From Chloroflexota bacterium (GTDB lineage Bacteria; Chloroflexota; UBA11872; VXOZ01), in the NCBI GenBank assembly GCA_964291655.2, contig OZ219802.1:800001-864000 (forward strand): DNA of 64,000 nucleotides, written 5' to 3'. A program made the translations under genes and the position numbers. This document shows, in pieces, positions 20,163-24,497 of this stretch; within the stretch, counting starts at the first letter, position 1; every line of letters begins with the position of its first letter. Below the pieces are notes generated by a model, which was not told the origin of the DNA, did not search any database, and was given only the letters and a program-made list of their open reading frames with translations.

Positions 20163-20323
20163 AGCCACCCACTGGCGTATCCGAGAGCGCAGATACGCAA
20201 ACTGCCAGACTGACTTTGGCAAAACCGTCCCAATTGTAGGCGCGGTTACAAAAAAACGTCTCTACTTTCGTTATACTGGGCATGGATAGGGGAGTAGTGC
20301 GTTGCGTGGTAAGGGCTTATCCT

Positions 20324-21079
20324 ATGCTTGTTGACGTTGGCATTGCATTTGGCGCCGGCATTCTCTCATTTTTATCGCCCTGTTTTCTCCCCCTGGTACC
20401 GGCATATCTTGTCTATCTCGGTGGCCGCCACGTCAACGCGGTCCGCCACGAAAAGTCTGCCCAACGGGCCGTCCTCATCAACGCGCTGGCCTTTATACTG
20501 GGCTTCGGCACCATCTTCGTCGCCCTCGGCATTGCTATCACGTTTGTTGGCCTTGCCTTTCAGCAAGGTCTTCCCACGATGCGGCTTGTCGGTGGCGCGC
20601 TTCTCGTCATCTTTGGGCTTAGCTTTCTGGGATTCCTGCGTATTCCGTGGCTCCAGCAGATTTTGCAACGGGAAGTCTCGCTCCGCAATACACCGCTGGG
20701 CCGCATAGACACGGAGAAAACCGGTCCGATCACATCTTTCCTGATCGGCCTGGTCTTTGGCACCGGCTGGACGCCGTGCGTGGGGCCGATTCTGGGCGCC
20801 ATTTTGCTCCAGGCATCCGGCGCTGACACGGTGGCCCGCGGCGGAATCTTGCTGGCAATCTACGCATTGGGAATGGGCATCCCGTTTCTCGCGATGGCCG
20901 CCGCCGTGGAGCGCGCTGCATCCCTCATGAACTGGCTCAAGTCCCACATGCTCGTAGTTGAGCGCACAAGCGGAGTCTTCTTGATCTTGATGGGAATTGC
21001 TGTGGCAACGAATTTCCTGGCGATGCTGTCTGGAGTTCTCGGCTTTTTCTCATTAGAAATCTTGGCATTTGAGCGTTAG
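20324..21079 (+). CDS. ccdA: CcdA-type transmembrane thiol-disulfide electron transporter
   Basis: SFLSPCFLPLVPAY and GWTPCVGPILGAIL (both redox Cys intact), ~6 TM helices; alternative start at 20282. Confidence 0.93.
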   Translation: MLVDVGIAFGAGILSFLSPCFLPLVPAYLVYLGGRHVNAVRHEKSAQRAVLINALAFILGFGTIFVALGIAITFVGLAFQQGLPTMRLVGGALLVIFGLSFLGFLRIPWLQQILQREVSLRNTPLGRIDTEKTGPITSFLIGLVFGTGWTPCVGPILGAILLQASGADTVARGGILLAIYALGMGIPFLAMAAAVERAASLMNWLKSHMLVVERTSGVFLILMGIAVATNFLAMLSGVLGFFSLEILAFER

Positions 21080-21318: not shown

Positions 21319-21984
21319 ATGCGACGACGTTCTGTATGCGCATTGCTGTTCAGCGGCGCGTCCGTAGCCGCGCTCGCGGCGTGCGGCGGCGGCTCAACGC
21401 TGCTCGATACGCAAGAGGAGCCCGCGCCGGCGAAGGAAGAGGCCAAGGCCGAGCCGACCGCTGCTCCGAAGGAAGCTGAGGCAACGGCTGAGCCCGAAGC
21501 GAAGGCGGAGCCTGAGCCGACGGCAGCGCCCGAACTCGACCTGCCCAACCTTGGCAAGGCGCCGGAGATTACGCTCACGCAATGGCTCAATTCCGATGCC
21601 ATTACGTTGTCCAGCTTGGAAGGCAAGGCCTCTGCCTTGATTGTCTTCTGGACCTACACCTGACCGGTGTGCCGCGGCGAAATCCCCAGTTGGGTGGATA
21701 TCCAGAACACGCTCGTTGACGACAGTTTCAAGCTCATCAGCATCCACTTCCCGGCCTTGGGCGCATCCACGGACGTGAGCGTCATTGCCGAGAAGTCCGC
21801 GGAGCTCAATGTCAATTTCCCGGTCGCAATCGATAATGACCTGTCAGCCTGGAACGACTACGGCAACAATGCCTGGCCGGTTGCCTACGCAGTCGATAAG
21901 CAAGGTGACATTCGCTTCAAGCAGGTTGGCGCCGGTATCGACTCAATCCTTGAAGTGATTGAAAAGATGAAGGCTGCGGGCTAG
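21319..21984 (+). CDS. Putative selenoprotein: lipoprotein TlpA/DipZ-like redoxin with UxxC active site (TGA 21661-21663 read as Sec), 221 aa
   Basis: Track ORFs 21319-21663 and 21667-21984 are in frame, joined by TGA-CCG. Read-through gives FWTYT-U-PVC-RGEIP, ISIHFP, FPVAIDND, YGNNAWP, VDKQGDIRF. MRRRS...LAAC signal; GGGAGG RBS. Confidence 0.85.
21679..21702 (+). promoter_or_regulatory. Candidate bacterial SECIS hairpin
   Basis: GAAAUCCCC-AGUUG-GG-U-GGAUAUC: AUCC/GGAU plus CC/GG stem, bulged U, apical GU 25 nt after UGA; conserved in the paralogue. Confidence 0.6.
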
Positions 21985-22020
21985 CGTACCTGCTGATTCT
22001 TAGACATCGGTCGAAACAAG

Positions 22021-22065
22021 CAAGCCGTCTGCGGTGTGCTCATCACACCGCAGACGGCTTGTTTT
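22021..22065. terminator. Intrinsic (probably bidirectional) terminator between the convergent redoxin genes
   Basis: Perfect 18-bp stem caagccgtctgcggtgtg/cacaccgcagacggcttg, 5-nt loop, followed by TTTT. Confidence 0.8.
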
Positions 22066-22174: not shown

Positions 22175-22214
22175 ATACAGTACCCAGTGTTCATGTGAAC
22201 ACTGGGTACTGTAT
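22175..22214. repeat. Perfect palindrome with 19-bp arms (terminator or protein-binding site)
   Basis: atacagtacccagtgttca-tg-tgaacactgggtactgtat. Confidence 0.7.
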
Positions 22215-22272: not shown

Positions 22273-22944
22273 TTAGCCCAACTCCTTGAGTTGCTTCACG
22301 GCATCAACCACCAGTTCGAAGTTGCCGCCGCCGAACTTTGCAAAGCGTATATTGCCCTGCCGATCAATGCCGTAGAATGCCGGCCACGTGCGGGTGCCAT
22401 AGGCGTTCCAAAGCACCTCATCGTTGTCGACAACCACCGGATAGTTGACGCCGAGGGCGTCGGCCCGCTCCTTAATGCCGCTGATGTCTCGGGAAGAACC
22501 GGCGTGCGGAAAGTGCACGGAGATCAGCTTGAAGCGGTCATCGTGGTAGGTATTGAAGAGATCCACCAAACTGGGGATTTCGCTGCGGCAGACCGGTCAG
22601 GTGTACGTCCAAAACACAATCATGGCAGCGGCCTTGCCTTCCAAACTTGCCATGGTGATGGGCTCGGAGTTGAACCAGCCGGTGAGCGTAATTTCCGGCG
22701 CCTTGCCAAGATTGGGCATATCGAGCGTGGGTGCTGCGGTGGCGGCCGGCTGTGCCTCCGTTTTGCTATCAGCCTTTGCTTCTTCTTGCGCCGGAGCGGC
22801 TGTTGGCTGCGCCGCGGAATCTTGCGCAGAGCTTGCGGGTGCCTCGTCCTCGGTATCCAGCAATGAAGACCCACCGCCACATGCTGCGAGCGCGGCTGCG
22901 GACGTGCTGCTTAACAGTAGAGAGCAAACTGAACGTCGTCGCAT
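22273..22944 (-). CDS. Putative selenoprotein paralogue: lipoprotein TlpA/DipZ-like redoxin with UxxC (TGA at 22599-22597), 223 aa
   Basis: Track ORFs 22597-23031 and 22273-22569 are in frame. Read-through gives FWTYT-U-PVC-RSEIP, ISVHFP, YPVVVDND, YGTRTWP, IDRQGNIRF. MRRRS...LAAC start at 22944. Confidence 0.85.
22558..22581 (-). promoter_or_regulatory. Candidate bacterial SECIS hairpin (second copy)
   Basis: GAAAUCCCCA-GUU-UGG-U-GGAUCUC at identical spacing from UGA. Confidence 0.6.
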
Positions 22945-23198
22945 GCCTATCCTCACCTTTCTCTTTCGTGTAGGTTTGCTGCCGCAATTCCTCGACGCAC
23001 CTCGTACCGGAAAACTGCTCTGCCGGCACAATCGCGCTTGGCGTTGCGACTATCGCTCTTCGCTTACTTCTATCCTAAACGAGTACAAGATGGAACTTCC
23101 ACCCCCACTCCCCCCCTACACCTTGACGACAAACAATTGCGAATTACCTGTGATAGTCTTGTCCAAATAGCAAGCGTAGCGTCCAGGAGTCCCGCACA

Positions 23199-24497
23199 AT
23201 GGACAACACCACTCTCCCCCAACCGGAACCGACGCCCGGCAATACCGCCTGGTGGACCCATGACCGCTTCGGCCTCTTCATCCACTGGGGCATCTATGCT
23301 ATGGCCGCGCGCCACGAATGGGTGAAGAAATACGAGCAGATCAGCGACGCGGACTACCAGCCCTATTTCGACCACTTCGACCCCGATCTCTACGATCCCA
23401 AGGCCTGGGCGCGAACCGCGCGAGAGGCCGGCATGCGCTACGTCGTCCTTACCAGTAAGCACCACGACGGCTTCTGCCTGTGGGACAGCCAACTCACCGA
23501 CTACAAGGCTACAAACACCCCCGCCGGTCGTGACCTCCTGAAGCCGTACGTCGAGGCCTTCCGCGCCGAGGGACTCAAGGTCGGCTTCTACTATTCGCTG
23601 ATCGACTGGCACCATCCCGAATTTCCCGTGGACGGCGTGCATCCCCAGGCGAACGATCTTGCCTTTCGAGAGGCGACCAAAGACCGCGACGTGCGCAAGT
23701 ACGCGAAATACCTCCACGGCCAAGTGCGCGAGATCCTTACGATGTTCGGCACCATCGAACTCCTCTGGCTCGACTTCTCTTATTCACAGCAAGACTACGG
23801 CTGGAGCAAGGGAAAGGGCAAAGACGACTGGCAGAGCGAGGAACTCATCCGCATGGTGCGGGAGATTAATCCCGACATCATCATCAACAACCGCAGCGAA
23901 ATCGAGCAAGACTTCCATACGCCGGAGCAATTCATCCCGCCGAGCTGGCTGCACGTGGACGGCAAGCCCGTCAACTGGGAAGCCTGCCAGACCCTCAACG
24001 GCTCCTGGGGTTACCACCGCGACAACCTGGACTGGAAGTCGCCGCAACTGCTGGTGGAGATGCTTATCGATTGCGTTTCCAAGGGCGGCAACATGCTTAT
24101 GAACGTCGGCCCTACCGGCCGCGGTGAGTTCGATCCGCGCGCGCAGGCGACGCTGGCGGAAATTGGCGCGTGGATGCGACAGCACGGGCGCGCGATCTAC
24201 GGCTGCACGCAAGCGCCGTTCACGCCGCCACGGGACTGCCGCTATACGTACAATCCCAAAACGAACCGGCTGTACCTGCACGTCTTTGCCTGGCCGCTCA
24301 AGTACCTGCACCTGCCGGGGCTGCGCAACCGCGTGCGCTACGCCCAACTCCTGAACGACGGCTCCGAGGTCAAGACCTTCGACTTCACCCAGCACCACCG
24401 CTACCCCAGCGGGGGCGAAGACCTGCTTACGTTGGAATTGCCCATCCAGAAGCCGAGCGTGCATACGCCGGTAGTTGAACTTTTCCTAGCTGATTGA
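23199..24497 (+). CDS. Alpha-L-fucosidase (GH29)
   Basis: RFGLFIHWG, TSKHHDGFCLW, YYSLIDWHHP, LWLD, SWGY, VSKGGNMLMNVGP. Confidence 0.95.
   Translation: MDNTTLPQPEPTPGNTAWWTHDRFGLFIHWGIYAMAARHEWVKKYEQISDADYQPYFDHFDPDLYDPKAWARTAREAGMRYVVLTSKHHDGFCLWDSQLTDYKATNTPAGRDLLKPYVEAFRAEGLKVGFYYSLIDWHHPEFPVDGVHPQANDLAFREATKDRDVRKYAKYLHGQVREILTMFGTIELLWLDFSYSQQDYGWSKGKGKDDWQSEELIRMVREINPDIIINNRSEIEQDFHTPEQFIPPSWLHVDGKPVNWEACQTLNGSWGYHRDNLDWKSPQLLVEMLIDCVSKGGNMLMNVGPTGRGEFDPRAQATLAEIGAWMRQHGRAIYGCTQAPFTPPRDCRYTYNPKTNRLYLHVFAWPLKYLHLPGLRNRVRYAQLLNDGSEVKTFDFTQHHRYPSGGEDLLTLELPIQKPSVHTPVVELFLAD

Follow-up and report, generated by a model that had tools for sequence, protein, structure and literature searches.

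A 64,000-nucleotide (nt) stretch of the genome of a Chloroflexota bacterium (GTDB lineage Bacteria; Chloroflexota; UBA11872; VXOZ01; GenBank assembly GCA_964291655.2, contig OZ219802.1, positions 800,001 to 864,000 of the forward strand; hereafter the window) carries two convergent paralogous genes, copy 1 and copy 2, each of which holds one in-frame TGA, at the same codon. We consider it very likely, with a probability of roughly 0.9, that the TGA of copy 2 (22597-22599, minus strand) is a selenocysteine (Sec) codon guided by a selenocysteine insertion sequence (SECIS), and that the two genes are Sec-bearing paralogues derived from one ancestor. In the mechanism that we propose, SelB and Sec-tRNA(Sec) would decode the TGA under the guidance of a SECIS that lies within the coding sequence and starts 19 nt downstream, and the product would be a 223-residue lipoprotein in which Sec replaces the nucleophilic first Cys of a CxxC motif as U-P-V-C. 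One Sec-bearing ancestor would have given rise to three Sec paralogues, in which purifying selection would have kept both the TGA and the SECIS. A sequence-only reading of the window had already pointed to the retained TGA; the SECIS, the Sec machinery of the genome, Cys-containing homologues and a third paralogue all lie beyond that reading and strengthen the Sec conclusion.

In-frame TGA codons in the gene pair and in congeneric genomes

Copy 2 extends over 22273-22944 on the minus strand and, with TGA translated as Sec (U), comprises 223 codons followed by a TAA stop. Copy 1, a convergent paralogue of the same architecture, lies at 21319-21984 on the plus strand with 221 codons and a TAG stop, and a spacer of 288 nt separates the two. 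On the minus strand, copy 2 reads ATT GTG TTT TGG ACG TAC ACC TGA CCG GTC TGC CGC, in which TGA CCG GTC TGC (22588-22599) would encode the redox motif U116-P-V-C119; its TGC occupies 22588-22590, and where its TGA stands, DipZ and homologues from the phylum have the first Cys of CxxC. The matching segment of copy 1, on the plus strand, reads TTC TGG ACC TAC ACC TGA CCG GTG TGC, with the TGA at 21661-21663. A degenerate search for W-T-Y-T-TGA-P-V-C found two sites in the 64 kb, that of copy 2 and one at 21649-21672 on the plus strand, against an expectation of 0.00 from 100 shuffles. Compared over their full length, the copies share 58% identity and 76% similarity and diverge most in the linkers (residues ~26-75) and the C-terminal parts; in each the ATG is preceded by a purine-rich ribosome-binding site (AAGGTGAGGA in copy 2, GGGAGGAG in copy 1). 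These comparisons bear out the sequence-only reading in its particulars. The codons of U-P-V-C are exactly those it gave, the three synonymous differences it listed between the copies (TTC/TTT, ACC/ACG and GTG/GTC) are all present, the divergence it described in linkers and C-termini is seen in the full-length alignment, and the TGA is kept with both downstream frames intact, giving open frames of 223 amino acids in copy 2 and 221 in copy 1.

We extended the comparison with a six-frame search of the window's genome (coded G000) and 40 relatives. Of the 16 further genomes of the genus, 14 (G001-G009, G012, G013, G015, G016 and G004) also have the convergent pair, with one TGA per gene, and G014, which is 69% complete, has only a fragment at the locus. 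A third paralogue, which reads FWTYG-U-INC, is ~48% identical and likewise has one TGA, is present in all 17 genomes. Motif-based extraction from these 17 congeneric genomes yielded 47 genes, 13 of them copy-1-like (group A), 17 copy-2-like (group B) and 17 belonging to the third paralogue (group C); the grouping was crude and put the second copy of G016 and a doubly stopped gene of G004 in group B. The TGA stands at one common codon in every extracted gene (47/47). A maximum-likelihood tree was built from the thioredoxin domains (50 rows, namely the 47 Sec genes and three Cys outgroups, with midpoint rooting only). In it, a branch with 100/100 support splits all Sec genes from the Cys outgroup; groups A and B join in one clade (100/100) and receive 100/97 and 97/92 individually. 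The TGA and SECIS would thus most simply have been inherited through two duplications, rather than gained repeatedly. The argument from retention in paralogues is thus sound, but what it reflects is shared ancestry together with continued selection.

Selection and a conserved hairpin downstream of the TGA

The ratio of nonsynonymous to synonymous substitution rates (dN/dS, Nei-Gojobori) between the two paralogues is 0.25 upstream of the TGA and 0.27 downstream of it (106 codons, dS 1.5, dN 0.40), falling to 0.18 downstream when the first 13 codons are left out. The sequence-only reading had named this comparison as its check, and the downstream value is far below 1, rather than near it. Since paralogue dS is near saturation, we repeated the test with orthologues in the 17 congeneric genomes, where pooled pN/pS downstream of the TGA is 0.24 in group A, 0.22 in group B and 0.18 in group C. 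All 47 downstream frames are open, over 106-108 codons. Synonymous change is itself unevenly distributed: in the 13 codons after the TGA, pS in the orthologue groups is 0.11-0.27, versus 0.38-0.55 in the flanks, and paralogue dS is 0.12 in those codons versus 2.5 further downstream. Synonymous sites are therefore two to four times quieter in the zone of the hairpin described below than in its flanks.

These data also speak to the possibility that the TGA simply terminates translation, leaving a 115-residue N-terminal lipoprotein fragment or two halves translated from their own starts. Under translation table 11 the frame does split into open reading frames of 114 and 98 amino acids, the second with a TTG at 22569, and a search of 5.8 billion protein clusters found no close full-length form, the best hit (122-391 amino acids) being 39% identical. 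That TTG is, however, the first ATG, GTG or TTG codon after the TGA, it lies within the hairpin, and no GGAGG-like site stands ahead of it. None of the six codons that separate the hairpin from the TGA is a start codon, yet their third positions vary while the amino acids P-[VI]-C-R-[SG]-E are kept, which is the pattern of translated sequence and speaks against separate translation of the C-terminal halves, the other outcome that would have told against the sequence-only reading. The low downstream pN/pS (0.18-0.24) points the same way, as does the predicted structure, a single thioredoxin fold to which strand 106-112, encoded ahead of the TGA, and helix 117-133, encoded past it, both belong; a lone C-terminal half would, moreover, be without a signal peptide. 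We regard termination as very improbable.

The quiet zone coincides with a small predicted RNA hairpin. In copy 2 it lies at 22558-22581 on the minus strand, with a core at 22561-22578 (AUCCCC / AGUUU / GG-u-GGAU) that two weaker lower pairs extend to the outer limits; in copy 1 it lies at 21679-21702 on the plus strand, with a core at 21682-21699 (AUCCCC / AGUUG / GG-u-GGAU). It starts 19 nt after the TGA and is kept in all 47 genes. We aligned the 54 nt from the TGA onward for these genes, without gaps and with columns counted from the U of UGA, and RNAalifold returned a 6-bp hairpin in columns 22-39, formed by (A/G)UCCCC, a 5-nt loop and GG-U-GGA(U/C) with a bulged U. The loop is AGUUG, AGUUU or GGUCU, with G29-U30 invariant. 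Five core pairs are invariant, and the sixth, 22:39, is A-U in 38 genes and G-C in 9, broken in none of the 47; the change from A to G replaces Ile by Val, the partner change from GAT to GAC is synonymous, and both occur in groups A and B. Among the 39 distinct rows, the six core and two lower pairs are 96.5% paired, compared with 38-54% when the partner strand is slid, and none of 500 shuffles reached the covariation score, a figure that sequence relatedness inflates. The hairpin agrees with the bacterial SECIS criterion as set out in PMC1088965, which asks for a stem-loop within the coding region, immediately downstream of the UGA, whose apical loop is small and contains G, although its stability alone is not significant.

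The genome also encodes the apparatus that such a codon would require. Profile searches identified selB (357 bits, cut-off 242), selA (562 bits, cut-off 268) and selD (383 bits, cut-off 125), together with a tRNA-Sec (67 bits, cut-off 47) that ARAGORN likewise called as tRNA-SeC with anticodon tca. The selD gene (G000:C2:2457313-2458242) itself appears to encode a selenoprotein, with one TGA in ...SCAG-U-AGK and two hairpins after it. A stop-free redoxin gene (C2:615329-615742) lies just upstream of selA (C2:617421).

This complete selA/selB/selC/selD set weighs on the suggestion that UGA is read here by an ordinary near-cognate tRNA (for Cys, Trp or Arg), or that Sec and Cys are interchangeable at this position, so that the protein would mostly be a normal CxxC or WxxC thioredoxin-like protein. 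Selenium at this position is a prediction from DNA and the hairpin is short and, alone, not unusually stable, both of which leave that suggestion some room. The conserved hairpin, whose loop holds GU and whose distance from the TGA is constant, nevertheless speaks against it, and TGA in all 47 genes, in place of TGC or TGT, would be hard to explain were Cys intended; we give it little credence. Reassignment of TGA throughout the genome, for instance to Trp or Gly, is refuted: TGA is an ordinary stop that ends nine of the 36 stop-to-stop frames of at least 300 codons in the window, long housekeeping genes such as DnaE (1235 amino acids) and LeuRS (908 amino acids) are open under table 11, and in-frame TGAs were found only at redox-motif positions.

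Several observations weigh against the Sec reading and keep it short of certainty. Sec at residue 116 is predicted from DNA, not from observed translation or selenium. The hairpin is small, and the stretches of 70 and 111 nt after the TGA fold no more stably than shuffled sequences (z of +1.3, -0.1, +1.7 and +0.2), for which reason we dropped single-sequence stability as an argument for a SECIS. The case for the candidate SECIS thus depends on conservation and one covarying pair, the five invariant pairs being uninformative, and no Rfam family reached its gathering threshold anywhere in the window. Two of the congeners, G010 and G011, hold a single gene at the locus. The lone genes of G010 and G011 fall within group B, and that of G010, which groups with copy 2, lies directly after ccdA on the same strand; this locus may have arisen by inverted duplication or may have undergone loss plus inversion. 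Finally, the copy 2 orthologue of G004, one of the 16 congeners, has two TGAs; the extra one stands 25 codons ahead of the Sec codon, in place of the Trp that is conserved in LTGWFNSEP. Copy 2 of G004 may be dispensable, may be broken or decaying by nonsense mutation, or may contain an assembly error.

The G004 gene indicates that members of this gene set can decay or contain errors, and is the one point in favor of reading the whole pair as pseudogenes created by nonsense mutation or sequencing error. With the TGA in 47 of 47 genes from 17 genomes, and with downstream frames that are open and under purifying selection, this explanation is refuted for practical purposes. The claim of the sequence-only reading that retention argues against error or nonsense mutation and for selected read-through is supported on both counts.

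Protein fold, homologues and the ccdA neighborhood

Both proteins begin MRRRSVC...AALAAC, a lipoprotein-type signal with an L-A-A-C lipobox, which we take to match the lipobox consensus and hence to mark a lipoprotein signal in copies 1 and 2. In copy 2 the signal peptide (MRRRSVCSLLLSSTSAAALAAC, lipobox Cys22) is encoded at 22879-22944 on the minus strand and is kept in orthologues. It is followed by a linker of ~50 residues rich in Ala, Pro and Glu and then by a thioredoxin-fold domain with FWTYT-U-PVC, with which the protein ends at residue 223. PF00578 (AhpC-TSA) matched copy 2 at 55.2 bits and copy 1 at 42.7 bits (cut-off 26), and PF08534 (Redoxin) matched copy 2 above its cut-off at 39.8 bits. 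Among NCBIfam models none reached its cut-off, the matches to ResA, StoA, TlpA and WAxxUGC all being sub-threshold. By these features, copies 1 and 2 are predicted lipoproteins with an AhpC-TSA/Redoxin thioredoxin fold.

A sequence search of solved structures returned the C-terminal domain of Mycobacterium tuberculosis DipZ (Rv2874) as the best match (E 1e-26), followed by Bacillus subtilis YkuV. In the alignment FWAYS-C-INC of DipZ corresponds to FWTYT-U-PVC, which places the TGA at the first Cys of CxxC. An AF2 model built from a 40-sequence alignment, in which the Sec/Cys column is invariant, has a predicted local distance difference test score (pLDDT) above 90 for residues 75-223 and sets U116 after strand 106-112 and just ahead of helix 117-133, the canonical CxxC position. 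Foldseek again ranked the DipZ C-terminal domain first (E 4e-15, root-mean-square deviation 1.5 Å over 150 columns, 35% identity), ahead of YkuV, ResA and pneumococcal Etrx2.

Homologues elsewhere in the phylum occur with Cys as well as with Sec. In a sample of 251 genomes, including the window's and the unpublished G199 (one row, with no stop), homologues at E <= 1e-22 were found in 45 genomes, and outside the genus they are mostly stop-free and longer. Other families of the same class carry stop-free relatives of ~400 amino acids with FWTYSCINC, FWTFACINC or WTFGCYNC, and the best hits among the protein clusters (36-39% identical) have FWTYTC at the aligned position. The best Cys homologues carry a PF17991 C-terminal domain. 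Three short homologues in two other Chloroflexota genera (G058 and G217; G126) resemble the genes of the window in being lipoproteins with one TGA, in MWTF[GS]-U-INC. Their hairpin, of 8 bp (AUUCCUUC-GUU-GAAGGAAU), differs from the one above but likewise begins at +22. Sec forms therefore occur beyond this genus as well. Separately, thioredoxin-NHL-repeat proteins with TFC-U-INC (G037, L077 151-1680, minus strand), in which Sec would directly follow a Cys at the CxxC position, have similar frames of ~500-600 amino acids in other families of the class.

The gene immediately upstream of copy 1, 240 nt away and in the same orientation, is ccdA (20324-21079, plus strand; PF02683, 69.1 bits), a predicted DsbD_TM membrane electron transporter whose frame opens at 20282 and whose start at 20324 was placed where orthologues align. 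Its two Cys residues stand in S-P-C and T-P-C motifs, and in 12 of 12 related loci it adjoins the pair. Proteins of the CcdA type take electrons from thioredoxin in the cytoplasm and hand them to proteins with a thioredoxin fold outside the membrane; in DipZ a CcdA-like domain is fused with the thioredoxin module in one chain. We therefore lean towards a function for copies 1 and 2 as CcdA-reduced reductases outside the cytoplasm, with Sec in place of the attacking Cys, a partnership suggested by gene order and by analogy to DipZ. The mature proteins would sit on the outer face of the membrane, where CcdA would reduce them with cytoplasmic electrons and they in turn would reduce disulfides or oxidised targets outside the cytoplasm. 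Such an arrangement would be a split, selenium-containing counterpart of DipZ.

Two results weigh against this functional part of the proposal. No ccdA was found near the third paralogue, whose surroundings, with leuS upstream, offer no hint of its function, and the genome, which is 97.6% complete, gave no hit to ResB (PF05140), MsrA (PF01625) or MsrB (PF01641), so the textbook CcdA-dependent targets are not evident. Genes resembling CcmF and CcmC lie 1.57 Mb from the locus, and since another redoxin gene is located 3.4 kb from the CcmF-like gene, we rated a CcmG role for the copies as unlikely; their scores also fall well below the cut-offs of the ResA/CcmG families (NF002854, 50 bits vs 170; TIGR00385, 20 vs 123). 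A second ccdA is present at C1:410714. Upstream of the third paralogue (G000:C2:1286000-1286600), intergenic units are repeated in several frames and copies, with translations such as ...FDKLRANG... and ...LRQAQGER..., and look like a dispersed repeat.

Relation to known selenoproteins and other features of the locus

Prokaryotic selenoprotein families are defined by domain and Sec motif, and the family lists of PMC13188914 and PMC9312934 include a Prx-like thiol:disulfide oxidoreductase (PF00578; UxxC/UxxU) that is 'predicted with high confidence', as well as entries for 'Thiol-disulfide isomerase-like' (cd02966; UxxC) and 'Redoxin family' (UxxC) proteins. A Prx-like family with a UXXC motif is described in the Sargasso Sea study (PMC1088965), and such a family was counted in bacterial genomes already in 2006 (PMC1794560). 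By PF00578 and UxxC, the criteria of those lists, the copies belong to this Prx-like class, whose catalogue example is WP_010940744.1. They share with it the PF00578 domain and a UxxC motif that opens with Sec (U-P-V-C in both copies, U-I-N-C in the third paralogue), but differ from the class descriptions in being lipoproteins with a long Ala/Pro/Glu linker, in lying closest to the DipZ/YkuV branch, and in forming three paralogues, two of them beside ccdA.

Among proteins of known structure, DipZ (PDB 2hyx, 5cyy) has the same type of thioredoxin-like domain and, as here, is associated with a CcdA-type membrane module. It has Cys at the Sec position, however, and its CcdA-like domain is part of the same chain, whereas ccdA in the window is a separate upstream gene and the copies have no match to PF17991; they are thus not DipZ proper. 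In Streptococcus pneumoniae, two CcdA proteins (CcdA1 and CcdA2) feed the two paralogous surface thioredoxin lipoproteins Etrx1 and Etrx2 (PMC3914529). This system likewise consists of two paralogous thioredoxin-fold lipoproteins with CcdA, and Etrx2 was among the fold matches, but the Etrx proteins use Cys, and their partner MsrAB2 has no detectable counterpart in this genome (no PF01625/PF01641). WAxxUGC selenoproteins (NF041054) likewise have an active-site Sec in a thioredoxin fold of the TlpA/ResA type. Membership of the copies in that family was rejected, as they scored 27.4 and 33.4 bits against a cut-off of 300, carry W-T-Y-T-U-P-V-C, not U-G-C, and are short (223 amino acids against a model of 354 positions). 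A fourth Sec-bearing redoxin-fold gene of the same genome (G000:C1:187866-188216) has MWASW-U-GC, followed by a TPR-like tail, with a long hairpin bearing an AGGU loop after the TGA; it shares the W-A-x-x-U-G-C motif of the NF041054 proteins, to which it is likened by motif alone.

The gene pair is real and probably un-annotated, and what it very likely encodes is nothing unusual, namely bacterial selenoproteins of a type already known. A more ambitious interpretation, which we hold only tentatively and think doubtful on present evidence, is that they represent a distinct, Chloroflexota-wide selenoprotein subfamily of short, surface-anchored DipZ-type lipoproteins with W-T-[YF]-x-U-x-x-C and a SECIS fixed at +22, outside the curated models, whose three paralogues and separate CcdA would make up an extracytoplasmic selenium-dependent reducing system. 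If that were true, neither the ResB-type cytochrome c pathway nor methionine sulfoxide reductases would be among its targets, which may be new. A practical consequence concerns annotation: because the standard code splits such genes into pieces of 114 and 98 amino acids, gene calls for this uncultivated Chloroflexota group probably lack or truncate three redox lipoproteins per genome. The genome appears to put selenium into several thioredoxin-fold proteins outside the cytoplasm, namely the three paralogues and the protein with the WAxxUGC motif, and SelD is a predicted selenoprotein in addition. Our knowledge of Sec decoding is unchanged by this finding. The locus makes a clear teaching example, in that three signals agree: the comparisons of paralogues and orthologues, the low synonymous change across the SECIS, and a single base pair that covaries perfectly. 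What it adds is clean evidence for a SECIS, the linkage to ccdA, the expansion to three paralogues and the occurrence of the same type of Sec lipoprotein in other Chloroflexota genera.

The spacer between the convergent genes contains two further inverted sequences. One is a 21-nt inverted repeat at 22018-22064 (95% complementary), which forms an 18-pair terminator-like site on the minus strand and would be usable from either side; the other is a perfect 19-nt palindrome with a 2-nt spacer at 22175-22214 (100% complementary). In contigs from runs X7 and X12, 5' sequence of copy 1 is fused to 5' sequence of copy 2, the two being on opposite strands (window positions 21398 and 22737). Contigs of run X5 give zero cover over 22554-23000, whereas run X2 is near-identical to the window and may be where this DNA comes from. 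The X7 and X12 junctions may stem from recombination or from an inversion involving the two inverted copies in related strains; alternatively, the assembly may be at fault where the signal-peptide sequences are alike. Beyond copy 2, the conserved neighbor is an alpha-L-fucosidase gene (23199-24497, plus strand; PF01120, 295 bits), which is unrelated to the redox genes and is followed by a gene for a solute-binding protein.

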